A stretch of 62,841 bases of DNA, the filler included, from Candidatus Woesearchaeota archaeon (GTDB taxonomy: Archaea > Nanobdellota > Nanobdellia > Woesearchaeales > B72-G16): NCBI GenBank assembly GCA_003650545.1. It is 12 parts of 12 records of this genome, joined end to end, with 100 filler letters (N's around TTAATTAATTAA, not from the genome) between each part and the next. Parts side by side here need not be neighbours in the genome. Positions count along the whole stretch, not along the records: positions 26,980 to 32,213 come from QMQO01000066.1; 11 more parts are not named here. One strand, given 5' to 3'. Shown here in pieces: positions 5,333 through 58,105 of the stretch. Each line of letters begins with the position of its first letter. Within the stretch, counting starts at the first letter, position 1. A program made the position numbers and the translations under genes. Under the pieces are notes generated by a model, which was given only the letters and a program-made list of their open reading frames with translations, did not search any database and was not told the origin of the DNA.

Positions 5333-5432
5333 NNNNNNNNNNNNNNNNNNNNNNNNNNNNNNNNNNNNNNNNNNNNTTAATTAATTAANNNNNNNNNNNN
5401 NNNNNNNNNNNNNNNNNNNNNNNNNNNNNNNN
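5333..5432. other. Artificial contig-joining spacer (first of 11)
   Basis: N44-TTAATTAATTAA-N44, which has stops in all frames. Identical spacers at 10753-10852, 16159-16258, 21543-21642, 26880-26979, 32214-32313, 37493-37592, 42767-42866, 47896-47995, 52894-52993, 57882-57981. Segment lengths fall monotonically from 5332 to 4860. Confidence 0.99.
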
Positions 5433-10752: not shown

Positions 10753-11001
10753 NNNNNNNNNNNNNNNNNNNNNNNNNNNNNNNNNNNNNNNNNNNNTTAA
10801 TTAATTAANNNNNNNNNNNNNNNNNNNNNNNNNNNNNNNNNNNNNNNNNNNNAAATAATAGAAAAGTGAAGGAAAAAGAAAGATAAAGAATGGAAAAAAA
10901 TCATTTCAAAGCTAAAAAGTTTCCAATGAAGAGAATGTAGATAAATGAAAATAATTGAATGATGATGATAATCATGAATAGATAATATAATTGAATGGGG
11001 A

Positions 11002-16158: not shown

Positions 16159-16937
16159 NNNNNNNNNNNNNNNNNNNNNNNNNNNNNNNNNNNNNNNNNN
16201 NNTTAATTAATTAANNNNNNNNNNNNNNNNNNNNNNNNNNNNNNNNNNNNNNNNNNNNAGTATTTAGTTATTAAAGCGTCATACGATTTATATGAATTTT
16301 TCGAAACGCAATTTCTCAAACTTTTGAGTTGCATACTCTTTGCACACACATACAATAAACAACTAAAGTATGCATTCTCTTCTTCCGCTAGTAAAACAAA
16401 CGTTGACACATCGACACTCCATGCTGACGAATTCATTAGCTCTTCATCAACTTAGTCATATGCAATGAACAAATATATAAATACTCTATGTATGTTTATA
16501 CAAAACTATACACACAACCTAATCAATCGATCAGAACTCAACTTCGATTGATACACTTTCTCTTCCGCTAGTATGCACAAGAATCTCCGAATAATCTTAA
16601 GATTCATATATGCAAAGTTCATGTACTTCACTGATGCTTATGATCGAAATACCTTCCGGACTTCTATAGTAACACTTCGATAGGTCAATTCATCGAATGA
16701 GCATGCAACGTATACACCCTGTGTACTACCCATGCACTGTGTATAGACTGTCCATGCACTACCTCTGCACTGCGTGCAGACTACATATTCACCGAATGGT
16801 CCTTCAACTTAAACACACTTTACATACTAAATCAATCGACAACACTTCAAATTCATCAATGTCGATACGAACAATCTCTGACACAACACTTTATAATTTT
16901 TTTATCGGATTGAAAATCATCATCTCAAATTTCCATT

Positions 16938-21080: not shown

Positions 21081-21642
21081 TTAAAATGTATAAAAATAAT
21101 TGAATATTTTATTTTTGAATTCGTATCAAGATTTACTTTTATCACAAAAGTAACATAGTAAGGGATACGTAGTAAAATGGAATAAAAAGGTCATTATATT
21201 TCATAAATATACTTTGATCCTCTTTGACAATTATGTTAGAAGGGTTTAGTATCGATCTGAATTTGGTGTAAATTCAGATTTATAATTGGTTCTTTTTTTG
21301 GATCCTTGGATCTTATGAATTGGTATATTGAAAAGACGGCAGAAATATCGATCTTATTTAAATCATTTATTGCTATTTTTATTCTACCTTAGAAGCATGA
21401 CAATGAGTATATACTACTTTTTTAGCGAATTTACTACTTTTTTTTCTGCTAACTTTTACTTTTTGCTAAGAATCGAGTAAATTCTCTATTTATTTTAGAT
21501 AAAAATGTCGAGTTTATTTTTACCTTAGGAACCTCATAATTGNNNNNNNNNNNNNNNNNNNNNNNNNNNNNNNNNNNNNNNNNNNNTTAATTAATTAANN
21601 NNNNNNNNNNNNNNNNNNNNNNNNNNNNNNNNNNNNNNNNNN

Positions 21643-24600
21643 CCCCTGATAAATATATGCTGATTTATTTTTGTACAATGCAATAGTTTGTGGAAGTGGT
21701 GAATCTGGATTTTCAACAAGAACATTATATGTCCAATAAGTTCTTTTTGATGTCATTGGCGGATTTAATCCTATTTGTTCTGTTTCTGACTTCCCTGTAT
21801 CAAATGTGCTTGCCCATGGGCCAAAATCATCTATTTCGTCATTATTAAGGTCGCCAAAGTTATAAAATGTAACCCATCCGCCATTACTTAAAAAGTTAAA
21901 TTTTTCATTTATTGTATAGTCATCTTGTGGTTTGAGTTGCTTAGGCAACAAACATATAATAGTATCTCCTGCTCCACTACCACAGACACCCTTGTTTAAA
22001 ACAGATATATGAGTACATATGTTATTGTATGACTCTTCGTGCTTCTTTAAGGGATCTTTCAAATATACTGCAGGTTTAGAGCCTTCGTATTCGGCAAATC
22101 CCCATCCTTCTATTACCATCCAGTTATCTTCATCAGGAGAAGTAAAATTTCCACCACGTTCTGGATGCCCACTAGGATACACTCTGTTTATACTTGTTCC
22201 TAACCCATAGAACCACCATGCTCCATAAAGCGTACAATATCTTTCGTCTATAGGCGAACCATCGTTTATGTCGGACCCATCTAAATTGATGACAGTAAGA
22301 GCTCTGAACGCTGATCCCATACCTTGCATTGGCGTAGAACCAGATATTGTTGTGTCATCTATATTTATAACCCCGGAAATGTCACATTCATAGGTAACAT
22401 CATCTGTTGAAGTATCATCGAGAAATCCTAACTTTATAACACATCCAGAACCAAGATGATTGAAATATTGTCCGGTTATATTAAAATCTGTTTTTTGATC
22501 AGAACGTCCCTTTTTTGGAGATATCGAAGTAATTATAGGTGGACGTATATCTTTGTATTGAAAACCACTTGGTAGAATTCCAATTTGTCCATCACGATTT
22601 ACGACTTTTATATCAATATATCCAGAATCAACAATTGTCCAAGATGGTATATTGAGCAACAAGCCAGGACCGGCCGGATGTGTAAAATAATTTATATCTA
22701 TATATCTAGCCCTATTCACCTCAGTATAAATTCCAGAACCCGCGTTACTAAAGTATATTTTTGCATCCCAATCTAAATTGTCACCGTGCAACCAAACATC
22801 TATCCCACCATCAGGATGACCTTTTGCAGGATAACACGCAATTGGTTTTGGTGGCAACCTATATGTAAATGCTTTGCATCTTGGACATCTGTATCCACCT
22901 TGTCCTTTGTTTGCAGTTGTGTCCCATCCACCACCCCATTGATATTTGGCAAATTGGTTAGAAAGAGATGATCCATGTAAATAATTTTCATCATATACAC
23001 CAGGGGGATTTTGAATATATATATTCCACATCCCATGACTCCCGGATGGCACAGGGGGGGTTACAAATTCTATAGTATCAGAAACACACATGATATTATT
23101 AATATTTATAGGGTTAATTAATCTTACTCCACTACAACCGGGATATTCTTCCCATGTTTTAAGAACAGCTTCAGAAGCCATAAGAGGATTATCTTTCCCT
23201 CCAAGGGCATCAGGATAAAAGTATGCCCACCGCATGTCTCCGTTATCTTTACCGCCATCTGCCTTAAACTGTTCCATGTCCCAGGAATATTCGTCGGGTC
23301 TAAGTCTCCACATAAACACCCTTGGCAAAAGTCCGCCAGACGGATAAGCTCCGCTTGGCGCCCATAACATATTTCTACATTTTAACCTAACTGTTAATCC
23401 GCCTTCACAGGCGCCTTCTTGTGGGGTAAGATTATTATATAGGGGTTGCATTTGTGGTTTTTTAAATGAAATTGCACACGGGGCAACAGCATATCTTGTT
23501 TCTAACCCGGATGCACTATTTTTGTCATTAATAACATATAGATTTTTTATTTCGGTATCATCAAGAGCCATTCTTGGTGTTCTAGCCCATATAGTTGTCC
23601 CGTCAGCAGAAACATCTTCTATTTGCCCTTCTGGCAAAGAATATCCGTATTCTAAAACCTGTCCTCTAAGTCCATCCGTAACCCAAACGGATTGTCCGGT
23701 TCGCCCTTCACATGCAGCTGATGTATTGTCCTCGGTGCATAATCTTAGTTTGCCACCTATAAGTATCTGGATGTTTTCTTTGGCGTCAAATCCTGTTCCT
23801 TCAACAATCATTCTTGTATTTCCGTCTGGCCATGCGGTTCTTTGCAAAGTTCCAATAAATCCATGAGGATTAGTAGTATCTCCTGTTTCTAGGTAAACAT
23901 TTGAAATTGTTGGCAACTCTGGAATATCTACATAAGTATAAGCGTTTGGCAAAACACCAGATAGTCCATTGTCTGTAATCTTTTCTAGCGCATCATAATA
24001 CACAATAACGTCTTTGGTGCCTAAAGAATCTCCTTCTGGTACAACAAACATATAACCAAACATTTCAGATGTGTTTCCAAATTCATCAGTACAATAGTTA
24101 CCTAAATAATTTCCTTTGGCAAATTCGCATGGTTTTCCGTCTATCCAAATAGATCCTATATTGTCTTCAGAATAAAGTGTTACCACATTTCCTCCAACAA
24201 GTGGACCCTTGTTGGGGGACACATATTCTCCAGACGGTGGATTTATATAATAAAAGTTTTGTGGGGCTTTAGCCCACCAACCTCTAAACCTTGGGTCTTC
24301 ATATTGTTTGTTTTTTTTCGGATAGTCATATGCTAATGTCCAGTTGTCTATTAATGATTGATCTTGTGTCGCAAAGGAGGCTGGACCAGTAGGATTTATA
24401 ACAACAAGAATATATCTGCATTCTAGATATTTACCATCTGGTTCATTGTTATATCTCATTGCTTCTGGAATAGTACATGTAAGCTTTCTTCCAACAACAT
24501 ATCCATTAGGATTAATTCCGGATTCGTGTAATTGGACATTTGTACACCAAGCCAGTTTTGTTCTATCATCTAGCCATTTACATCCTTCACAGGGTACTAG

Positions 24601-26879
24601 AGATGGGTTAAACCATGCATCGCAAATTAAAAATACTTTTGGTAGTTCTAAGTTATCATTTTGGTAAAAGTTTCTCCCATATATTTCAAGTTCTAACCCG
24701 CCATGTGTAGTCCCATATCTAGGGCTAAAGTCGTATACGGACATAGCTGTTCCTACATAATGGAAAAACTGACATGGATATCTAGTAGAAGCAAATTCTT
24801 CTCCGTATTCACTGTATTCTTGTAGCCCGGAATTTGTTATTATAAACCATGGTGAATCCGCATAGGTTGATGGTCTTTCTGGCAAAGTAGCAGATAAAGA
24901 ATAACCGTTTCCACTTGGCAAATAATCATTTATTGGTACTTCTAACTCGTGCCAAGTAAACTCTTGAAAGTCAAATGTGTTTACTAAATGAGCTGGTATA
25001 TTACATTCGATTTCTGTTGTAGGTTCATACCATCCCATTTTAAGTTGCATTGTCCCGCTTGCTATATTTTTTCCATCAACAATTATGTTTGTTGTAGCAT
25101 TATGATCCCCAAAATTTGGCTCAATATTTGTTATCGTTGGTAAATTAATCCCTGTTGGTGGCGGCAATAAAGTATATGTGTGAGGATCATCGTCTTTGTG
25201 ATTTAATAGCCAAGAATACGGAGCCGTTACCATAATTTCATACGTTCCTGGGTTATTTAAGTTTTCAGGAATTCTAACAGCTACACCTCTTTTATTACAA
25301 CCATGATAACTAAGAATGTTGTTTGAACCTTCCATATATTCTAATTCTATTACATTATCGGGATTTTCTGGCAAAGGGTATTTCATATAAACATTAGAAC
25401 CAAAAACTATATTGTCACCTTCTATAAAAACAAGATTCCCACCGGTTAAGGGTCCTCCGCTAGGAAACACACTTTTTATTTTTGGTCTCCTTTGATATGT
25501 CCAGCCTAATGTGCCTGTTTTTTGGTCATGAACTCGTGTTAAAGATTCGCCAGAAGGCCAATATATATTCTGAAATATTGTTACTTCTTTGTATCCCTCA
25601 AAACCAAAAGGATAAACTTTTTCGCATCCAGAGCCATCAAAGCAAAACGGGGTACCGTCTGGTCCATATTCGTGATAAGTATCAACCCCAATCAATGGGG
25701 AACTTGGGGCTAGTCCTGTTATTTTATCAACAGCTCTATTTCTACCAAAGTGTCGTATATCTGTCCCGTATTGATCCATGAACATCCCAAAGTCACCAGA
25801 TCCACGATAACATGTATTATTTAAATATCTATCTTTATGCCACAAAACTGTAGTTTCTCCAGAACACATAACATCTTCTGGGTTATATAATAGAGTTCCT
25901 GTTATTTCAAATCTTACAGTTTCTCTTGGATCAGAATATGGTACAAGTGGTCTTAATCTATTAATTTCTATATTCGGTATTCTTTCTGCAAAGTCATCAT
26001 TTACATTATAAATTAATCTAGGTTTCCATACAGGTTCTTCAAAGTTTGTATCGTCAGTATCTGGACCTGGCCCGACTCCAGGGCTAGGACTAGCCCCAGG
26101 GCTAGGACCAGTGCTAGGGCTAGGACCGGTGCTAGGACTAGTACCAGGACCAGGACTAGCGCTAGGACCGGTGCTAGGGCTAACACTAGAACTAGGACCA
26201 GGGCTAGTACTAGGACCAGTACTAGGACTAGTACTAGGACCAGGACTAGGGCCAGGGCTAATACTAGGACTAATACTAGCAATACCGGCACTAATACTAA
26301 CAATACCGGGACTAACTCCAGGATAGGTATCTGGAATTTTGTCGCCAGATGCGCCATCTCCTCTTTGGCCTTCATAAGGCACTAGCATGTATAGAATGCC
26401 AAGCGTTTCGCCGGAATACGCATTGCCATCTTCCCACATACCAATTTCGTACCACTTTCTTTTATCTCTAGAAGGATATGGTGGTGTATTATCCGACAAA
26501 GAAACCATATCGTCATAAGCATATTCTGACGTAAGTTTTAACCCTAATGCAGAAAACTGAGAAGATGATGCCGCTTTTAAAGACGCTTGCGTAACATCAA
26601 AAAAATTCCATCCAGAAGTCAATGGTATAGCGCCATTACCGCCAACAAATGTGTGTTCGCTGTCTAAAGACGGTGTAGAAAGTTTTAGCCCGCTCCCGCC
26701 ATACACATCGTTCGGGAACATGTTTGCCAAATTTTCTAGTTTGTACATTTCTTCTGGTGTTAAAGTATCGGGGTCAGGACGATCTATAAAATAAACATGT
26801 ATCCCGCTAGGGGAGTTGCCTTGTGCTGCGCCGTCTTTCATGAATGGGTGTGTGGCATTATTGATGGCAAGTATAACGC
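21643..26879 (-). CDS. Giant multi-IPT/TIG (Ig-like) protein, truncated at both ends
   Basis: Frame open across the whole contig. About 9 IPT/TIG-like starts such as PKIKSVFPSGGPLTGGNLVFIEGDN, FSPRYGTTHGGLELEIYGRNF, PIITSISPKKG. Confidence 0.8.
26064..26320 (-). repeat. 6-bp-periodic low-complexity tract encoding a Ser/Pro/Gly/Thr linker
   Basis: AGT/GGT-CCT/ACT hexamer variants encoding SPSISPGPSPGPSTSPSTGP... Confidence 0.9.
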
Positions 26880-27249
26880 NNNNNNNNNNNNNNNNNNNNN
26901 NNNNNNNNNNNNNNNNNNNNNNNTTAATTAATTAANNNNNNNNNNNNNNNNNNNNNNNNNNNNNNNNNNNNNNNNNNNNACTTTACAATTGATAATAAAT
27001 AAAAATACCAACTAGTGGGTAAATAACATCATTTTATTTTTGTTTTAAAGCTATTTTCTATTATTATTTCTCCATTCCCGATTACGTATCTTGGTGATTT
27101 GTGGTAAAGTAGTAGTTCTCTTAGTATTTGATAATTGTGTATTAGTAAGTCGGCTCTGCATCCCTTTGTTATTTCTTTGCAGTAATCTCTTATCCCCTAG
27201 CTCTTGCCGCTCTCCACGTTATCATGTCATACAGTATCTTCATTTTACC

Positions 27250-28240
27250 TGGTGTTATTCACCACATTATGTGTGAAGCTAGGAATGCTACTTCTAACAT
27301 AATTATTTCTATGGATAGTAAGCGTCAACTATATTGTCTTGGTCCAATGCTACATTAACATTTTCCTCTAGTAATAGGTTTAGTCGTGCATAGAGAGGTC
27401 CTGTATGTGGGTCAACTACTACACCAATTTCAGCCTCCCTAGAACTCTGGCTAGTTTCCGAGTATATAGGTTTCAGGATAAAGTGTCATAGCTCTAGCAT
27501 GATGTGCAGTTACCCTTCCAATTCCAGCCGTATCGAGGTTTTTGTCTTTGCCAACTTCTCTGTTGTACGTAGCGTAGGGTCACCAGCATCATCTACAAGC
27601 ATTGATATATCTTTATTGTATTGTTTGGCTATTTCGAAAGTAGTTTCAATACGTTTTCATTCGTCTTCACTGTTATCTTCGATCCAGGGTATACCTCCAA
27701 TAACATCAGCTCCAAGCTTCATGGCCTTGCGTATAGTTCTTCTGTATCAGTTTCATGTATGATATCATCTTTGGGAAATACTACTACTTGGAGTACCATG
27801 TACTCCGCTCTTAGTAATGCTTTTACACCTTCAAGTCTAGTCTTACTATCTACATCAGCAAATCGGCGCATACAGAGTGCACCGCCTCCTCCAGTGTATG
27901 ACGGACATTGATGATAATACATCTTCCATCATACTTTTCCTTAACCTTACTAGCCAGTTCAATAGCACGAATAGAAGAGCCAATTCTTCTTCCTGATAAT
28001 ACCGTAGAACATCGCCACCAATTATCTTAGAGGTATAGACTTTACATGAGTGTAGGTGCAAGTTAACAAATACCAGGGTAACAAGATTTCCATTGGTATT
28101 TATTTCGCGCCCTCCTTTTCTGGAATATTTTCTGATATATACTTTACTATTCCATCAGTTATTGCTACATCAAAAACACCTTCTTAATTATTAGAGCAGA
28201 GAGATTCAATTCTATAATTGAATAACCTTTAGATTCCAAC
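27250..28240 (-). pseudogene. Decayed cytosine-deaminase-like amidohydrolase
   Basis: Fragments in different frames with stops: FDVAITDGIVKYI, FVNLHLHSCKVY (HxH), FADVDSKTRLEGVKALL, LQVVVFP, GADVIGGIPW, MLVDDAGDP, NVNVALG. Ends approximate. Confidence 0.8.
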
Positions 28241-28845
28241 TCCTTGACAAGATAAACTACATCATCTGAATTCTCCTCAATGCAGTTGCAAATAACTTTA
28301 GTATTAGTTGGTTGACCTGGCTTTGTCTATAACTTTAGCAAGTATATCCTCTCAATCGCTTAGCCAATATCTAATACCATAAGCATTCACAAAAACATAG
28401 GGAACTTTTAACTATAAAGGATGGAGGATGAGCGCTCTCGGATTTTAAGGCGATAGAACCTATAGTAACTCCTCTTATACTATACTCTATAGCCTTCAAT
28501 AACAAGGTATCATTAATATCATCTCCTGAAATAATGACAGAGTTCTTTAACTTAACCTCGCCTAAAGTAACAGATGAATCTACACTCATAAACAATCCCT
28601 TAGGATACTTCTAAAGATACCATCATATAAGGACATTTATGCAATCAACGAATATTAACAACTTCTAATGGAATGCTGGCTTCTTATATGAAGAGCTTGA
28701 GACAATGATTCCATTAACAGAATCATGCTATCCCTAGTACTAGTACTCGTAATACTATACATGGTAGTCAGAGTAATGAAGAAAATATATAGATATAAGA
28801 ATAAATCTCTTTTCATAACTTCTCAATAATTATTCGGGAAGAAGT

Positions 28846-29814
28846 ATGGCTATTAAGATCCTAGCAGTAATGCTATTGGTAGTTATTGTATTCGGCTCTG
28901 TTGTTAGCGTAGGTCTTAATACGATAGATAAAGGTGGTTTAAGAGAATTCCTTGAATCACAATATGTTCCTGAGGCAAGGTTGCTAAGAGCTGCTACTAC
29001 TGCTTATCCAGAAAATACTACTATCTGGATTGCTAGCGATAATCTCCTTGCTGCTAGGGCTCTTGCTGTACTAGGCTCTCCATATGCGCCTATAATTGAA
29101 ACAGAATTACAAAACAAGTATAATGGAGGGAGAAACGGGCAACACGAAGTATTGTTAGGAATAAACATACCAAACCAATTCTATGAACCAGTCATAGTAA
29201 TCCTGGGCACCATTTATTCCAGTAAGTTTAACGCTACATTAACTGTTAAGTATGAGTACCACAATGGCACATTGTTTAGTAATTGGCAGGATTATGCAGA
29301 CCTAATAGTTTATCGAGCTCTAGATAGCTTACTCGAGGGTTCAAGACCTTATGCTGAAGAATTGTTCAAGAAACTCATGTCTATGTGGGATGGATATGGC
29401 TTTAGAGATGGTGCATATGATGGTAAATACTCTACATACAAGCTTGCATTAGCTATCTACCTCTATCGCGCCCTAAAAGCAGCTGGTTCAAACATGTATC
29501 AATACGAGGACATCATAAGTAAATGTTATGAAATCATATCAGAGCTCCAAAGAAGTGATGGCGGTATAATAACGGATTATATGGTTAAGAATGGTGATAT
29601 CATACCTACTGGTGATGCAAACGTTGAGACAACAAGTATTGTGGTATTGGCTGTATACTCTGATTACCCAGAACTAATAGGAAAAACAGCATTAGAAAAA
29701 CAAGCCTTAAGCAACTTGTCTCTGGTCACAATTATTACATTATTAACGGTGTTAACGCTTATGGCTATAGTCTTTCTCTATATTTTCGTATTCAGAAATA
29801 ACACAACAAAATAA
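28846..29814 (+). CDS. Secreted, C-terminally anchored hypothetical protein, possibly an (alpha/alpha)-barrel glycan-active enzyme
   Basis: N-terminal signal, C-terminal TM, helical core ending LQRSDGGIITDY...NVETTS; adjacent to GH99. Confidence 0.7.
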   Translation: MAIKILAVMLLVVIVFGSVVSVGLNTIDKGGLREFLESQYVPEARLLRAATTAYPENTTIWIASDNLLAARALAVLGSPYAPIIETELQNKYNGGRNGQHEVLLGINIPNQFYEPVIVILGTIYSSKFNATLTVKYEYHNGTLFSNWQDYADLIVYRALDSLLEGSRPYAEELFKKLMSMWDGYGFRDGAYDGKYSTYKLALAIYLYRALKAAGSNMYQYEDIISKCYEIISELQRSDGGIITDYMVKNGDIIPTGDANVETTSIVVLAVYSDYPELIGKTALEKQALSNLSLVTIITLLTVLTLMAIVFLYIFVFRNNTTK

Positions 29815-30039
29815 AATACATTGAGAGCTTCCTAAGTACATTTCATAGGTGTCTAATACAATGGTTATATTTAGGCAATAGCATAACCAAGGCATGCTAG
29901 CATCATGTCAGATAAGTACCATTATTGATGCAATTGTTTAACTAATGATAAGCTTGTATAGTCTGACATTGATGATGACGATGCTAAGAAATAATGTTTA
30001 AAATCTTTGAAAAGTGATGCGTAAGATAGGTTAAGGATC

Positions 30040-31101
30040 TTGTATTTAAATAAATACATTTCTTGCCTATTTCTTGTAGTCTTATCTCTTATCTTACCCA
30101 TTGTATCACTAGCTGATACCACACCTATAGTTGCGGTCTACTTCTATGTTTGGTATGGTAATGGTCTAGGTTCTAGGCATTGGAATGATAGCCCCTATAC
30201 TCCAGTCATTGATGAACCATTAATAGGATACTATAGTAGCCTTGATCCAGACACCATAGAGTGGCAATTGCGCTTACTCAACGACGCTGACATAGATGTG
30301 TTGTTCATTAGCTGGTGGGGACCAGGTAGCTATGAAGATAAAGCAACTAGGCTAGTATTTGAAAATCTTAAACGTTATGGTCTCAAGGCTGCTATTCTCG
30401 TAGAGCCTTGGCTAGGTAATGATCCTAACCTATATGATAGTAAATGGTGGAGTCAAGTACTAGACTATATATGGAGAAATTACGTGGAGAAGTACCCAGA
30501 AGTTTACTTTTATTGGGAAGGCAAGCCATTAGTATTAGCATTTAACCCCATAGGAATGAACTATAGACCTATGTCAACAATCTTCACAATACGCATAGTA
30601 GGAAATGATATCGATAATGCTCATTACCAGGACTGGGATTTATGGCCAGACTACTTAGCTCCTTGGACTACATCTAAGGACATTGTACTTAGAGTAAGAT
30701 ATGATGGATATGTAGCAATAACGCCAAGATTCGATGACACGATATTTTGTGAACTAGGCATAAGAACAAACTGTGGTCAAAGACTAATAGACCCAGACTA
30801 CACCATTCAAGCCTACGTTAAACAATGGGAATGGATACTAAGAAACAAGGATAGAATACGGCTCATAGCCATCTACAGCTGGAACGAGTACCATGAGCGC
30901 AGCATGATAGAACCTCACTATGACTCTACGAAACCTAAAGAACTAGTATACGATCCCTATACCATAACCAAGAACTATACATCCCTACTCAGGAACGTAC
31001 ATAACGGTTTAACTAATATCAACTTAAACACAATAACATTAACAGTACTGATATTTATCGTCTCAATGCTTTCCATATATGCATATGTCAAAAAGGAGTA
31101 A
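30040..31101 (+). CDS. GH99-like glycoside hydrolase, membrane-anchored
   Basis: YFYVWYG, PLIGYYSS, ISWWG and SWNEYHERSMIEP (two catalytic Glu); signal peptide and C-terminal TM. Confidence 0.88.
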   Translation: MYLNKYISCLFLVVLSLILPIVSLADTTPIVAVYFYVWYGNGLGSRHWNDSPYTPVIDEPLIGYYSSLDPDTIEWQLRLLNDADIDVLFISWWGPGSYEDKATRLVFENLKRYGLKAAILVEPWLGNDPNLYDSKWWSQVLDYIWRNYVEKYPEVYFYWEGKPLVLAFNPIGMNYRPMSTIFTIRIVGNDIDNAHYQDWDLWPDYLAPWTTSKDIVLRVRYDGYVAITPRFDDTIFCELGIRTNCGQRLIDPDYTIQAYVKQWEWILRNKDRIRLIAIYSWNEYHERSMIEPHYDSTKPKELVYDPYTITKNYTSLLRNVHNGLTNINLNTITLTVLIFIVSMLSIYAYVKKE

Positions 31102-31160
31102 TTTTATATCATCCCGATTATTTACGTAGGTACTTATATAGTAAATAAGAGCTAAAGAAT

Positions 31161-31520
31161 ATGCGTGAAGGTCTTACACCTGAAGAACTCTGCAGGGATC
31201 CGAAACTATTCATAGAACTAATGGAAAAATATAACATCACTCTCAGGCAGCTGGGTATATTGCCTAACTATAAGGCGAAGATAAAATCTGGTTTAAAGAA
31301 GCCTAGCCTCGACTTATGCAGAAAACTTATGGAATTAATAGGCATAGAGAATAGTTTGGGAGAAGTGGCGGCCCGATCCCAGCTTGGGGGAGCTGCGGAG
31401 CCTCTCGGACTCCACAGCTACCCCCAACGCGGCCGGCTTAACTTCCGGGTTCGATATGGGACCGGGTGTTACCCGGCCGCTATGACCGGGTCGAGCCGCC
31501 GTATACCTTATCATTATTAG
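31161..31520 (+). CDS. XRE-like HTH ORF reading antisense through the 5S rRNA gene; possible N-terminal fragment of a split SSV-type integrase
   Basis: aa 1-68 are HTH-like (LMEKYNITLRQLG...KSGLKKPSLDLCRKL). From V69 (31365) the frame is the antisense of the 5S gene. Confidence 0.5.
   Translation: MREGLTPEELCRDPKLFIELMEKYNITLRQLGILPNYKAKIKSGLKKPSLDLCRKLMELIGIENSLGEVAARSQLGGAAEPLGLHSYPQRGRLNFRVRYGTGCYPAAMTGSSRRIPYHY
31373..31494 (-). rRNA. rrf: 5S ribosomal RNA (crenarchaeal type, stand-alone)
   Basis: Minus strand: CGACCCGGTCATAGCGGCCGGGTAACACCCGGTCCCATATCGAACCCGGAAGTTAAGCCGGCCG...CTGGGATCG, with conserved CGAAC and GAAGTTAAGC; the two ends pair as helix I. Confidence 0.96.
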
Positions 31521-31524
31521 TGGT

Positions 31525-31538
31525 GTTTTAAGTTTTTC
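31525..31538 (-). promoter_or_regulatory. BRE/TATA promoter of the 5S rRNA gene
   Basis: GAAAAACTTAAAAC about 25 nt upstream of the GGCGGC stem start at 31500. Confidence 0.6.
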
Positions 31539-31539
31539 T

Positions 31540-31815
31540 CTACTTTGGTTGCTTGACTTCTATTGTATAGATTGCCTGTATCTTCATTGGTGCTCCACAT
31601 TTGCTGCATTTTCCCTTTACTAATGATATGAAGTCTCCTTCTTCATAGTCTATTTCTAATACATTACCACACTTTGTACATTTTAGTAGAGTCCTTGTAA
31701 TTCTTGGAAGTTCTCTTGGTTTTCTTCTTGACTCTATGTAGAGTTGGAGAAGAATTACTGTAACACCTAGTATTATTACTATAAGCAATAGTGTTGGATC
31801 ATTAAAGAACGTCAT
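31540..31815 (-). CDS. Membrane-anchored Zn-ribbon protein
   Basis: N-terminal TM; CTKC...CSKC; overlaps the DUF1512 stop. Confidence 0.8.
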   Translation of the reverse strand: MTFFNDPTLLLIVIILGVTVILLQLYIESRRKPRELPRITRTLLKCTKCGNVLEIDYEEGDFISLVKGKCSKCGAPMKIQAIYTIEVKQPK

Positions 31816-32213
31816 TGTGCAACACCTATACTATTACCTATGCCTGCTATTATTATTGTTGATCCTTCCTTAGTTGCATTCTTGATAAGATTTAATAGGT
31901 AATCGACAGTTCTCTCCACAGCTTCATATAACTCCTTCTTCATGGCATGTAAAGCTTCTGGAAGACCCATCTTTATAACTATAGCTGATAACTGTATATT
32001 GTGCCTAGATGTTGCTCTCTCTATAGCTATTTTCTCTGGCCCAGGATCACCTATTGCTGCTCCTACACCCTCAGCTATTTCACCAAGTTCTTCACCTTCT
32101 AATTTAAGAGCGGCATCTATTGTAACAATTAGGTCAACATTGCCACTAAGTTTCTCAACAAGATCAGCTAGTACCTTACCAGGCTTACCCACATTGGATC
32201 CAGGGCCTTCAGC
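31812..32213 (-). CDS. DUF1512-family protein, C-terminal part (5'-truncated)
   Basis: GPGSNVGKPG, IDAALKLEGE..G.IAEGVGAAIGDPGPEK, GIGNSIGVAQ. Confidence 0.85.
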   Translation of the reverse strand, partial: AEGPGSNVGKPGKVLADLVEKLSGNVDLIVTIDAALKLEGEELGEIAEGVGAAIGDPGPEKIAIERATSRHNIQLSAIVIKMGLPEALHAMKKELYEAVERTVDYLLNLIKNATKEGSTIIIAGIGNSIGVAQ

Positions 32214-32313
32214 NNNNNNNNNNNNNNNNNNNNNNNNNNNNNNNNNNNNNNNNNNNNTTAATTAATTAANNNNNNNNNNNNNNNNNNNNNNNNNNNNNNN
32301 NNNNNNNNNNNNN

Positions 32314-32475
32314 TAAATATCCTTCTTTTAAGTACTCATCTATCAATACTCCAAATAATAACAATATTAACCAAAATAATAATCTTCTATACCAGTTTCT
32401 AAATGGTTTGTATCTATCAACTATTTTACTTTTCAAAGATTTCAACAAGTACTTCATATTGTTGTGGATATTCAT
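32314..32475 (-). CDS. Small membrane protein (3'-truncated)
   Basis: Basic N-terminus followed by LLFWLILLLFGVLI. Confidence 0.5.
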
Positions 32476-34017: not shown

Positions 34018-34917
34018 TTACCATGCTAAATGAACTATGTCAAATGTAAATAATCCTATATAGGCATACCACACACTACGCGAACAATAGTCTCTGATTC
34101 CAACCAATACGAAGTTTGTACCATTCTTCAGATAAGGCTTTATATCGTATATCGCCATACCTACCCTAAGAACTGAACCAGATGTCCTTACCAATGCAGT
34201 ATTGTTTACATATATACCTGGTTCATCACCATAACATCTATATGATGATACAATATCGAAAACCACCAATCGTGCTCCGATAACCTTGTTAATATCAGGT
34301 ATATTGAAAGTGTATCCGACTCCTATAACGCCTCCAGATACCTCTCCACCAAAGTCATAGAGTTTGTATACAGCAACCTTTCCACTCAACCTTCTAGAGG
34401 TTGGAGTATCAATACTATATTCAACATTATATACATTTATAGATTTTGAGCTATAGCTACCGTTAATAACCTGCATATCCGATGGACCTATCCCACCATA
34501 TCTATCAACTATAACAGCTGCAGGGTCTATCTTCTCTGCTGTAACCGCATTATCAGCTATTTTAGGAGTTGTTACAGCGCCATCAGCTATTTTATCCGTT
34601 GTTACACCACCTGTACAAATAGTTAGTCTACCTTGGTCATCGAGGCATATGCTAGTGTTATCAACACTTACTTCAGCTCCTAGCTTCTTAACTGTTGTTC
34701 CATCTGGAGAGTATCTCCACTCATCTAAATCGCTTCTGTACCACAGCTTAACCGCTTCTAATGTTGGGTCAGATGTGAGAGCCGGAAACTTGATGCTATC
34801 CGGTAACAAATCAACAGTGTTCTTACCTATCCTCAGATACGGTAATCCCTCCTCTATCAAGTCCTTGATTAGCCACCAAGCTATACGCTTCTTAAACTTT
34901 TTGAATAGCCTACTCAT
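34018..34917 (-). CDS. Putative tail fibre/receptor-binding protein
   Basis: VTTDKIADGA/VTTPKIADNA/VTAEKI 10-aa repeats, VSVDNTSI motif, beta-rich C-terminal head. Confidence 0.7.
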   Translation of the reverse strand: MSRLFKKFKKRIAWWLIKDLIEEGLPYLRIGKNTVDLLPDSIKFPALTSDPTLEAVKLWYRSDLDEWRYSPDGTTVKKLGAEVSVDNTSICLDDQGRLTICTGGVTTDKIADGAVTTPKIADNAVTAEKIDPAAVIVDRYGGIGPSDMQVINGSYSSKSINVYNVEYSIDTPTSRRLSGKVAVYKLYDFGGEVSGGVIGVGYTFNIPDINKVIGARLVVFDIVSSYRCYGDEPGIYVNNTALVRTSGSVLRVGMAIYDIKPYLKNGTNFVLVGIRDYCSRSVWYAYIGLFTFDIVHLAW

Positions 34918-36560
34918 TCTACCACCTCCTCCAACTTGAACCTATACTTCTTACCAGATGGAGACACAAGGACAAGACCATATTTCGAGTCTTCAACAAT
35001 TCTCCAACCATTCCTAAACTCAAGGTCACCAACCCTAACCAAACTAGATGCATAAACCTCATTAGCGTTTATAGTATTCACATTCTTGATATTTCTACTA
35101 GAATCAATAACCTCGGTACCACCCACCTTAAGACTTCCTATATCAATGGCACCAGCTATATATGCATTTCTCCATTTATAGTTCTCATCTCCTAAATCAT
35201 AAGCATTATTAGATGAAGGTCGTATCTTGTTGTAGAAAATGATTTCTTTATGACTTGTCCATCCAAAAGGTAATATACTCTCTAACAATGGAGATGGTGG
35301 TACAATACTAGCCAAGATAAACTCGATAATCTTGGGATGTTGAGCACTATTAGTTCTCCTAATGGTTATAGTTATCCGTATATAATTATCGCCAGCGATA
35401 GGGCTGTTAAAGTAGATAAATAGAGCACCATCCCATAGCCGCACACTAGTATTCATTTCTGCTTTGACATTTGCTTCTGAGACAAAGTCGGAATAGCTGC
35501 TTGTTTCAACTTTAACATAGTCAATATAATAGCAATGTTGTACAAGTATTATTAAGCGTTCAGCATATGTCCAAGCATTTACTAAGTTATACCAAAATCT
35601 TAGTGTTAATTTATCTACACCGAGATTATCCATTATAGTAGCAAAGTCAAAATATGAATATTTCATATCTGTCAAACTTGAAAAGTCATAATCTCCTGTT
35701 ATATCTATCCATGCATTATTTGCTTCATCGAAATATTCAACTTTATATGGAGTTTTGAAAGCTAATGGATTACCCCATACTGGAGACATTGCTAATGCAC
35801 TATTTCCTGTCCAACTACGATAGTCTTTATAGTTTTCAATAGGGTTATAGCTCTTAGCAAAAACAGTTCCTTTAAACCATGCATTTCTCCATCCATATGT
35901 CGAGTTTCCTATATCATAGGCGTTATCAGCATTTGGCACAAAATGTGTATCAACATCAATTAAACTAATCTTTCTATTTGTTATCTTGCTAAAATCAATT
36001 TGGTTTACTATCAAGTTCTTATTAGCATCAACACTAAACTCTGAACCTAGTCCTTCAAATGGTTTATCTGGTATCTCGCTCCAGAATGGAGTACTGAAGA
36101 AATCTGTTATTTCTGAGCGTGTATGTGTATGGGGTTCTGGTGGATACTGGCTCGGTTTATCAGGGATGTTTTCCCAGAATGGACTGTTCCAAAAATCAGT
36201 AATTTCGCTACGAGTATGGGTATGCGGCTCTGGTGGATATTGAGATGGTTTATCAGGTATATTGTTCCAGAATGGTGTTGAGAAGAAATCACTGATTTTG
36301 CTCCTTGAGATAGATGCTATCTCCAGCCTACCATTAGTAACCTTGAACTCGCTACCAAGTGTAGAGAATGGCTTATCCGGTATCTTGCTCCAGAACGGAG
36401 ATGCCCATAAATCAGTTATCTTGTTTCTACTGACATTAGCTATTTTCTCATCTGTTATAGAGTTGTCTGGGTGGTCAATAGGTATCTTCTCCCTGTGCTC
36501 AGTTAATTTCTTAAACAGCTTCTTTATGAATGAGAATGATATTGCGTCGAACGGAGCCAT
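34914..36560 (-). CDS. Putative tail fibre protein
   Basis: Four IxD.....FW..IPDKP repeats, two with PPEPHTH; two P...NAYD(I/L)G.....WRN motifs; C-terminal SGKKYRFKLEEV. Confidence 0.78.
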   Translation of the reverse strand: MAPFDAISFSFIKKLFKKLTEHREKIPIDHPDNSITDEKIANVSRNKITDLWASPFWSKIPDKPFSTLGSEFKVTNGRLEIASISRSKISDFFSTPFWNNIPDKPSQYPPEPHTHTRSEITDFWNSPFWENIPDKPSQYPPEPHTHTRSEITDFFSTPFWSEIPDKPFEGLGSEFSVDANKNLIVNQIDFSKITNRKISLIDVDTHFVPNADNAYDIGNSTYGWRNAWFKGTVFAKSYNPIENYKDYRSWTGNSALAMSPVWGNPLAFKTPYKVEYFDEANNAWIDITGDYDFSSLTDMKYSYFDFATIMDNLGVDKLTLRFWYNLVNAWTYAERLIILVQHCYYIDYVKVETSSYSDFVSEANVKAEMNTSVRLWDGALFIYFNSPIAGDNYIRITITIRRTNSAQHPKIIEFILASIVPPSPLLESILPFGWTSHKEIIFYNKIRPSSNNAYDLGDENYKWRNAYIAGAIDIGSLKVGGTEVIDSSRNIKNVNTINANEVYASSLVRVGDLEFRNGWRIVEDSKYGLVLVSPSGKKYRFKLEEVVE

Positions 36561-36564
36561 TTTA

Positions 36565-37492
36565 TCACCTCAACAGAGTTGTCCATACATCGAGTGTTAC
36601 AGAGTATGAACTATCAAGATTAACAATCTGTATCTTTACATAGGGGGTGAATATAGGTATCAGAACAGTTCTCTGCTTAGTTTTACCCGATTCAAACGTT
36701 AAATCCTCATAGTTTCCTTGCTCCTCAGCATCTTCAGGACTATCATAGTTTGAGCCATCGGGGCTGTACAACCATCTAATCCTCACACCCTTAGTAGCAC
36801 TTGAATTATACGTAGCTCTAACAGTAACTACAATAGCTGAGTACCCATTTAAGTTGCTCTTGATTATCTCTTTAACAGAGTTAGCACCTAGCGAATAAGA
36901 AGATAGTTCTTTTGTAGGAGACGTTCTCCTCGGAGAAACATTGACTTTTAGCTCGTCTAAACCAGAGTCATACGCTTTTAGAATATCGCTTATCTTGACA
37001 GGTAGTGTTATAGCAGATTCCTTTATGCTTATAGGCACATTTATTGTTGAATCCTTAATTTTTATTGGCACATCTATTGTTGTTTTCTGTATATCTATTG
37101 GTAATACTATAGATGTATCTTTGAGACTGACCGATAATGTTACATCACTTTTAGCCAAATTAATTTTCAACAAATTGTTTTCATCATACGTTAATTTATC
37201 TGTCTTTAATTTTATAACCGTAAATAATTCAGCTACTGATTTATCAATATTTGAATTGTATAGCCTATTAGCAACTATTTGCAGTGTTGATTCTGATGCC
37301 CTTGTAGATAAGCCAACGTTTAGATTCTTGATATAGTTAGATAACTCGTTTCCTTCACTATCATACAATGTTCTTGGTAGTTTCTCAGCGAGTCTATTGT
37401 ATATATCTGTAAGTGTTCTTAAATCGGTACCCATTACCTCATCGAGATTCTGTACAGATGTCATTACATTACCAACGTTATCTACACGGAGA
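36565..37492 (-). CDS. Putative virion structural protein (5'-truncated)
   Basis: Frame open to the gap; 11-aa repeats (IKDSTINVPIS type) and LSTRASESTL. Confidence 0.65.
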
Positions 37493-37592
37493 NNNNNNNN
37501 NNNNNNNNNNNNNNNNNNNNNNNNNNNNNNNNNNNNTTAATTAATTAANNNNNNNNNNNNNNNNNNNNNNNNNNNNNNNNNNNNNNNNNNNN

Positions 37593-42766: not shown

Positions 42767-42867
42767 NNNNNNNNNNNNNNNNNNNNNNNNNNNNNNNNNN
42801 NNNNNNNNNNTTAATTAATTAANNNNNNNNNNNNNNNNNNNNNNNNNNNNNNNNNNNNNNNNNNNNG

Positions 42868-47895: not shown

Positions 47896-48014
47896 NNNNN
47901 NNNNNNNNNNNNNNNNNNNNNNNNNNNNNNNNNNNNNNNTTAATTAATTAANNNNNNNNNNNNNNNNNNNNNNNNNNNNNNNNNNNNNNNNNNNNACATA
48001 AAACATCTATTAAA

Positions 48015-52893: not shown

Positions 52894-52993
52894 NNNNNNN
52901 NNNNNNNNNNNNNNNNNNNNNNNNNNNNNNNNNNNNNTTAATTAATTAANNNNNNNNNNNNNNNNNNNNNNNNNNNNNNNNNNNNNNNNNNNN

Positions 52994-57749: not shown

Positions 57750-58105
57750 TATATGACAAGCCTCCTAGACCCTCTAATAGGGGATACACATAAATGATAT
57801 CTAGACCATATAGTACCTCTCATTATTTATAATCCTTACCTTGATTATGCCTTCTTTAATTAATCTCTCTATCACTCTAAGNNNNNNNNNNNNNNNNNNN
57901 NNNNNNNNNNNNNNNNNNNNNNNNNTTAATTAATTAANNNNNNNNNNNNNNNNNNNNNNNNNNNNNNNNNNNNNNNNNNNNCCCACTCTCCCGACTCTGC
58001 CTTAAAGAGAGGTTTTATATCATCGACGAGAGGAGAATCTGTATAAAAGGACTCGTCACCAATTTTTAGGAGCATAAAAAGAATTGTTAAAAGAAATTAA
58101 AAAAA

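Follow-up and report, generated by a model that had tools for sequence, protein, structure and literature searches.

The stretch of DNA analysed here (referred to as the window; 62,841 nt including filler letters) is derived from assembly GCA_003650545.1 of a Candidatus Woesearchaeota archaeon and contains an open reading frame (ORF) that runs antisense into a 5S rRNA gene and is discussed below as a candidate fragment of an archaeal integrase gene. The ORF (31161-31520, plus strand) encodes a predicted protein of 119 amino acids (aa). It shares one contig with the 5S gene (QMQO01000066.1, positions 26980-32213), and the real genomic context of both is limited to that contig.

The ORF has no stop codon before it enters the minus-strand 5S gene at position 31365, where codon 69 begins (GTG GCG GCC CGA, encoding VAAR). 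This had been noticed in an earlier reading of the window made without database searches (the sequence-only reading), and the ORF call and the Rfam annotation agree with it. Rfam family RF00001 matches the 5S gene at 31374-31493 (minus strand) over model positions 1-120 of 120, with a score of 66.9 bits (gathering score: 38), and this is the sole RNA gene that Rfam finds in the window. When Rfam and the predicted fold are combined, the intact gene occupies about 31367-31500 (minus strand), with a helix I that is longer than in the Rfam model. In the fold of 31355-31510 (minus strand; minimum free energy -94.2 kcal/mol, z = -8.3), helix I pairs 31500-31485 with 31382-31367, and GGGCCGCC is the 3' strand of this helix. 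The ORF enters the 5S gene itself and not a flank. The sequence GGGCCGCCA, which had been taken for a 3' flank resembling the 3' end of a tRNA, pairs in the fold with the 5'-end GGCGGC of the 5S gene and so belongs to helix I. ARAGORN finds no tRNA in the window, and a tRNA-like 3' end at this position can be ruled out.

The ORF can be divided into two parts. The first (31161-31364, plus strand) is int(N)-like, that is, like the N-terminal fragment of a split integrase gene, and encodes an XRE-like helix-turn-helix (HTH) domain at aa ~6-61 followed by a few linker residues. The second (31365-31520, plus strand) is a read-through tail of 51 codons and a stop, antisense to the 5S gene. One of the three plus-strand frames is open across the 5S gene (67% GC). 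Full read-through is thus a one-in-three event in a gene this rich in GC, and carries little weight alone. A TATA-like sequence (TTATATA, found by eye) is located at 31134-31140, ~24 nt upstream of the ATG of the ORF, and would fit a leaderless transcript heading towards the 5S gene.

A phmmer search with the 119-aa ORF against 1.84 billion representative sequences gives 22 matches at E <= 1e-3, the best with an E-value of 1e-34. These share only aa ~5-67 with the query, and 20 of the 22 are 84-134 aa long; P0005 (1329 aa, six matched stretches) was dropped as a repeat-protein false match. The alignment of the HTH part (A1) has eight invariant columns, and its profile matches the window ORF at aa 6-61 with 87.9 bits. 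A profile search of the PDB identifies the immunity repressor 8bny (E-value: 2.7e-4). In the AlphaFold2 (AF2) model, the HTH part forms five helices (predicted local distance difference test score [pLDDT] 77), and its best fold look-alikes in the PDB are XRE-type, all of them weak (E > 0.08). The predicted fold and the profile match point to an XRE-like domain, as had been proposed from the sequence, although the window ORF fails formal membership of Pfam HTH_3 (aa 1-68: 13.9 bits, cut-off 23; E-value: 0.057). HTH_3 matches nine of the 22 family members at E <= 1 (best E-value: 1.3e-6). The HTH has no match in the PHROG families or in the phage collection, and the protein atlas returns generic HTH clusters only.

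It is very improbable that the ORF is not a gene at all but a chance frame, or an artefact of gene calling, next to an RNA gene of high GC content. The window ORF has no above-threshold Pfam match and its tail is clearly non-coding in origin, both of which would suit an artefact. However, this explanation is already contradicted by the 22 homologues and their invariant HTH columns, the model of the domain is confident, and synonymous divergence from the related locus described below (dS 0.133) is greater than non-synonymous divergence (dN 0.034).

A genome scan with a five-sequence HTH alignment identified one true relative of the locus, L001, in a metagenome-assembled genome (MAG) of an uncultured member of the Desulfurococcales. 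Four other scan matches (bacterial, from Saprospiraceae and Polaribacter; 24-28 residues) were set aside as chance. With the window and L001 included, 31 HTH-bearing ORFs were counted. Eleven of these read antisense into a 5S gene from its 3' end, and all three frames are used. The 5S type, called by blastp-short against the 5S frames of the window (E < 1e-3), comprises nine database proteins in addition to the window and L001, and its named carriers are L001 and P0023 (Pyrofollis japonicus PYJP_03980). It is this family pattern, not the single read-through, that goes beyond chance. Another 16 ORFs carry tRNA-derived peptides, as judged from peptide signatures and manual reading of the proteins and not from DNA, and three are unclassified. 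Eight have the peptide signature of an antisense tRNA T-arm (degenerate in P0040), and eight look like a whole tRNA read in sense from its 5' end (P0008, P0009, P0010, P0011, P0019, P0022, P0025 and P0026). ORFs of this family recurrently enter both 5S and tRNA genes. Homologues of ~70 aa with a stop codon of their own, which the sequence-only reading had named as evidence that would speak against it, are the opposite of what is seen: the short members run into RNA genes. In a tree of the HTH part, six 5S-type rows, the window among them, form a clade (support 92/86), and the other five 5S-type rows are unresolved among the tRNA types, so the tree cannot tell a single origin of the 5S target from multiple origins. 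In one family member of another kind, P0014 (241 aa), the HTH is followed by a C-terminal part of 178 residues that matches nothing in Pfam and is neither RNA-gene read-through nor a recombinase.

Full-length integrases have the same HTH domain at their N-terminus. When profile A1 was used to search for longer proteins, seven matches were obtained, among them P0024 (408 aa; 80 bits, E-value: 2.6e-17). This protein has the conserved domain PF16795 (Archaeal phage integrase; 28.7 bits, cut-off 27), and its aa 15-58 are 52% identical to aa 17-60 of the window ORF (44 aa; E-value: 1e-10). A profile search of aa 1-68 against integrase N-termini had been suggested earlier, and by sequence comparison the HTH of the window ORF is indeed homologous to them. 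Searches from P0024 and from profile A3 yield 27 distinct proteins, 20 with precomputed PF16795. The HTH is present in four of the 27 (P0024, P0040, P0041 and P0046; 404-428 aa), which belong to different clusters.

The full-length proteins also indicate where the att (attachment) site lies within the gene. Three of the four with the HTH have the antisense-tRNA T-arm signature at aa 73-78, between the HTH and the recombinase. Six shorter forms begin 30 aa or fewer from the tRNA-derived signature. P0013 (short) and P0032 (long) share 25 of 28 residues ending in the tRNA-derived peptide and diverge right after it. For P0024, AF2 predicts an HTH with confidence (aa 9-64), then a disordered segment (aa 65-119), within which the att-encoded peptide falls, and finally a two-domain recombinase. 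In structure comparisons this recombinase part resembles XerA, XerH, Cre and the catalytic domain of SSV1 integrase (3uxu: TM-score 0.69 on the target, root-mean-square deviation 3.9; 3vcf: TM-score 0.64). Profile A3 matches no PDB chain at E <= 0.01. P0046 matches a PHROG integrase family (E-value: 2e-8), no PHROG family is matched by P0024, and the phage collection gives a single weak match, to the integrase of Archaeoglobus profundus pleomorphic provirus 1 (30% identity, 34% of the query). The tRNA-targeting relatives have their att site within the DNA that encodes the linker.

According to the text available of two publications (PMC7253208, PMC8371274), integrases of the SSV type carry attP, the attachment site of the element, inside their own ORF, which is divided into int(N) and int(C) when the element integrates. 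The HTH, the tRNA-encoded peptide inside the gene and the presence of PF16795 in relatives together correspond to this split-integrase layout. On this basis the window ORF is probably the int(N) remnant of an HTH-bearing, SSV-type ("suicidal") tyrosine integrase at an att site in a 5S rRNA gene.

It is rather improbable that the locus is instead the edge of an element which uses the 3' end of the 5S gene as its att site, but in which the HTH is a separate attP-adjacent gene (a regulator or a directionality factor) and not the front half of the integrase. This would agree with the apparent selection on the HTH part and with the failure to find a fused 5S-type integrase (0 of the 27 proteins). 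It would also agree with the review PMC8371274, the available text of which gives the N-terminus of IntSSV2 a role in multimerisation and does not contain the term "helix-turn-helix". However, four tRNA-type relatives from different clusters encode the HTH and the recombinase in one frame, and the short forms have no stop ahead of the RNA gene.

Comparison with L001 places a boundary at the 5S gene. Window positions 29985-31502 correspond to L001 positions 1-1523 with 96.1% identity, which takes in a glycoside hydrolase family 99 (GH99)-like gene, the HTH ORF and the whole 5S gene (62.4 bits against RF00001 in L001). The homology ends at the 5' end of the 5S gene. Upstream of its 5S gene, L001 has a tRNA-Gln gene followed by chromosomal genes of ordinary kinds, for an HD-domain protein, MarC, a glycosyltransferase, asparagine synthase, CobD and CobS, and the flank of the window (Zn-ribbon and DUF1512 genes, see below) is absent. 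Relatives had been proposed as a place to look for an empty site. None is seen at L001, the sole relative locus, which has the same ORF-5S junction and joins the same ORF-side genes to another 5S upstream flank.

Identity between the two loci changes from segment to segment. It is 1034/1062 in the GH99-like gene and 182/192 in the HTH part of the ORF, and falls to 3/12 in a patch from the end of the HTH to the 3' end of the 5S gene (window 31353-31364, L001 1374-1385), a sharp difference between such near-identical relatives. It is then 72/72 in the 3' 72 nt of the 5S gene, 59/64 in its 5' 64 nt and 27/60 in the next 60 nt. By our own arithmetic, five random differences in 136 nt would all fall within those 64 nt with a chance of ~2%. 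The boundary between shared and locus-specific sequence thus lies inside or at the 5S gene, which fits an att core in its 3' part; the candidate core is 31365-31436. Another family member, P0002, does not differ from the L001 ORF at any of the 58 HTH columns in the alignment used for the tree, and has 90% identity to the window ORF in aa 1-67. To judge from its protein sequence, P0002 carries the L001-type 12-nt patch and enters the 5S gene in a different frame from L001; the two protein sequences suggest a 1-nt indel between them.

The proposed series of events leading to the window locus would be the following. A circular element carried the HTH, attP and the recombinase as a single gene. 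The integrase would belong to a subfamily with an XRE-like HTH as its N-terminal domain and with an att site within DNA coding for a disordered linker between the HTH and recombinase domains. The attP would have recombined with a 5S rRNA gene of the chromosome at its 3' end, splitting the integrase gene. The window would then show one of the two junctions, which runs from an element arm with int(N) through the core, formed by the 3' part of the 5S gene, into the remainder of that gene and then host DNA. Rebuilding of the target gene at the junction should leave it complete, which agrees with the intact 5S gene. After the junction, the frame would continue through the GC-rich antisense 5S gene to the first stop that it meets, so the 51-codon tail is most likely a by-product of the junction and not a functional peptide. 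From this arrangement we infer that the 5S gene served as the att site at this locus, and that the DNA further upstream contains, or formerly contained, int(C) and a partial repeat of the 5S gene.

A number of observations weigh against this model. No int(C) or recombinase domain was found with profile A3 in the six-frame ORFs of the window and L001 (best E-value: 0.8), Pfam scans of the same two sequences gave no recombinase domain, and neither sequence contains a second or partial copy of the 5S gene (blastn-short in the window). The best other blastn-short match to the 5S gene in the window is 17 nt long (E-value: 0.19) and comes from the 5' part of the gene, and the 19-nt junction has no second copy in the window at up to three mismatches. 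The second junction or 5S copy next to a catalytic domain, for which the sequence-only reading had suggested a search, is accordingly absent from the window and L001. None of the 27 integrase-domain proteins holds a 5S-derived peptide, a count that covers few proteins and depends on shared five-residue words, so the 5S type is known only as short ORFs. The negative results for int(C) and the 5S repeat are weak because contig ends are near (4.4 kb of DNA precede the ORF in the window and 1.2 kb in L001) and because the protein searches were small and limited by word matches. The apparent sense read-through of a whole tRNA in eight family members is unlike the classical geometry, in which att corresponds to the 3' half. 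The neighbouring genes are atypical for mobile elements: they comprise an ORF without assignment, a decayed amidohydrolase and a GH99-like gene that is under purifying selection. Two other processes would account equally well for the boundary seen between the window and L001, namely homologous exchange involving two copies of the 5S gene and the artificial joining of contigs during assembly at a repeat of 134 nt. Finally, the HTH part appears to be under selection and not decaying (dN/dS 0.25; dN 0.034, dS 0.133), a ratio derived from only five synonymous and five non-synonymous changes; the stub may be young or may be retained for a function of its own. The earlier proposal of an int(N) at a 5S att site is thus supported in part. 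What stands is the homology of the HTH to PF16795 proteins, the tRNA-antisense peptide between HTH and recombinase in three of the four full-length relatives, and the entry of short family members into RNA genes, which recurs for the 5S gene; what is missing is an int(C), a 5S repeat and a full-length integrase with a 5S-derived segment.

Alternatively, the ORF could encode a stand-alone small XRE-family regulator that is a conserved convergent neighbour of the 5S gene in the chromosome, with a tail due to the scarcity of stops in a GC-rich antisense rRNA gene and with the integrase fusions produced by separate domain shuffling. Apparent purifying selection on the HTH part, the one frame in three left open by composition alone, ordinary neighbouring genes, a pairing with 5S that is kept in relatives of only 44-63% identity, and the failure of the searches made to find int(C), a 5S repeat or a full-length 5S-type integrase are all compatible with such a regulator. 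We nevertheless regard it as unlikely. A protein with a fixed C-terminus should bring its own stop, but 27 of the 31 ORFs run into 5S or tRNA sequence, and the frames vary even between ORFs with identical HTH parts (L001 and P0002). The same domain forms the N-terminus of four PF16795 proteins, short and long forms part just past the RNA-gene-derived peptide, and the 5S upstream flank differs between two MAGs that are 96% identical at the locus. An integrase gene split at the 5S gene remains the explanation that we favour.

The contig of the ORF contains few other genes. On the upstream side of the 5S gene, which would be the host side, there are a gene for a small Zn-ribbon protein (31540-31815, minus strand; weak Zn-ribbon Pfam matches) and the C-terminal part of a DUF1512 gene (31812-32192, minus strand; DUF1512_C, E-value: 2.8e-47, profile positions 51-175 of 175). 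The latter gene is truncated by the contig end at 32213, with a linker from 32214. Housekeeping-type genes had been placed beyond the 5S gene, but these two are the only ones that are truly adjacent to it. A glycan gene and a pseudogene are located on the ORF side as described previously. The GH99-like glycoside hydrolase gene (30040-31101, plus strand; Pfam Glyco_hydro_99, E-value: 3.5e-12) has a dN/dS of 0.15 between the window and L001 and may or may not belong to a mobile element. It is preceded by an ORF of 322 aa (28846-29814, plus strand), which is without a match in Pfam or PHROG and falls outside the stretch available for L001. The decayed amidohydrolase-like pseudogene (27150-28844, minus strand) has many stops in every frame and, when stops are read as X, matches Amidohydro_3 below the cut-off (E-value: 8.3e-5; 22.7 bits, cut-off 29.7). 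This heavily decayed sequence, with its many stops and frame changes, adjoins intact genes. The proposal that 26980-31364 is island cargo is not supported: position 26980 is the end of a contig and hence not an island boundary, and the neighbouring genes are not those of a typical mobile element.

The remainder of the window consists of other contigs. In all there are 12 pieces, contigs from a draft genome or a MAG, ranging from 5332 down to at least 4860 bp and in decreasing size order, joined by linkers of the form N44-TTAATTAATTAA-N44 (5333-5432, 10753-10852, 16159-16258, 21543-21642, 26880-26979, 32214-32313, 37493-37592, 42767-42866, 47896-47995, 52894-52993 and 57882-57981). As the pieces are joined artificially, gene neighbourhoods across linkers are not real, and ORFs that cross a linker (for example 21595-26841 and 32266-32475) are cut genes. 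The contig at 5433-10752 has a GC content of 54% (~36% elsewhere) and encodes BioY, an isochorismatase and a transglutaminase-like protein with Por_Secre_tail, a domain for sorting in type IX secretion. This contig seems to be of bacterial origin and probably contaminates the archaeal bin. The contig at 57982-62841 (48% GC) is also unlike the rest of the window in composition, and carries one huge minus-strand ORF (at least 1447 aa) with PEGA and CarboxypepD_reg domains. Three adjoining ORFs of 299, 548 and 299 aa are located at 34018-37464 (minus strand). The first two weakly match PHROG tail-fibre or minor-tail families (best E-value: 1.5e-8) and the third matches only phrog_10590 (function unknown; E-value: 2.9e-5); the 548-aa protein has internal repeats of a ~30-residue motif. 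This region could represent a piece of a virus or provirus, located on a contig other than that of the 5S gene. A 180-aa ORF at 49349-49891 matches the phage DNA methyltransferase family phrog_954 (E-value: 2.9e-63), and the rest of its contig consists of small ORFs without assignment.

Whether 5S genes serve as integration targets beyond this one locus can be considered in the light of what is described for archaea. The available text of the review PMC8371274 gives the chromosomal attachment site, attB, of archaeal tyrosine recombinases as mainly tRNA genes, with some protein-coding genes and intergenic sites, and states that attB can reach over the D-loop and past the tRNA gene. The words "rRNA" and "ribosomal" are absent from that text, as is "rRNA" from the text available of PMC7253208. 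In a 2026 preprint on Thermococcales, as far as its accessible text goes, all integrated elements found use SSV1-like integrases at tRNA genes. In the article text that they covered, our literature searches found no report of a 5S att site; supplementary tables of att sites may list targets other than tRNA genes.

With attP in DNA that encodes a disordered linker, the encoded peptide would be free to be anything, and a switch of target from tRNA to 5S would be possible. A wider proposal can be built on this, to which we give slightly less than an even chance of being correct. In it, a subfamily of suicidal integrases in Desulfurococcales-like archaea truly uses 5S rRNA genes as attB, and the freedom of the encoded peptide let the target change from tRNA. 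The occurrence of the GH99-like gene and HTH ORF at two 5S loci would reflect either integrase-driven movement or exchange between 5S copies, and int(N) would be expressed, giving an mRNA antisense to 5S RNA. If this is true, mobile DNA can insert at the 5S gene through a type of integrase for which only tRNA genes were known as targets, and the rules on where archaeal mobile DNA inserts would be broadened. The position of attP in linker DNA would explain how the target could change without breaking the enzyme. A small HTH ORF antisense into a 5S gene could serve in annotation as a flag for the edges of elements, and 5S genes would be candidate hot spots for rearrangement in hyperthermophile genomes. 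In public sets, many "hypothetical proteins" with lengths of 85-135 aa consist of an HTH stub with a translated RNA gene fused to it.

The locus can be compared with three known kinds of system. The first is that of SSV-type integrases, represented by SSV1 and SSV2 of Sulfolobales and by pTN3 and pT26-2 of Thermococcales and Archaeoglobales. As in these systems, the short N-terminal fragment lies antisense to an RNA gene and overlaps it from the 3' end, and the catalytic domain of the relatives matches PF16795 and the SSV1 structures 3uxu and 3vcf, although the family is remote in sequence from solved structures (profile A3 against the PDB, E <= 0.01). Unlike these systems, the gene that is entered is a 5S rRNA gene, the targets in the descriptions available being tRNA genes, and the N-terminal domain is an XRE-like HTH, whereas the N-terminal extremity of IntSSV2 is said to control multimerisation in the text available of PMC8371274. 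The second is the tRNA-targeting kin of the family (P0024, P0041 and P0046 at full length; P0013, P0015, P0017 and P0018 as short forms). These have the same HTH (66-97 bits) and an RNA-gene-derived segment similarly close behind it, but their peptide, to judge from its signature, comes from an antisense tRNA T-arm and that of the window from the 3' end of 5S. The third is the group of XRE regulators (Pfam HTH_3, C-proteins, SinR, HipB and phage immunity repressors). The window ORF is predicted by the AF2 model to have the same five-helix fold, but in contrast to these regulators, which are tied to operators of neighbouring genes, its family is tied to integrases and to junctions with RNA genes.

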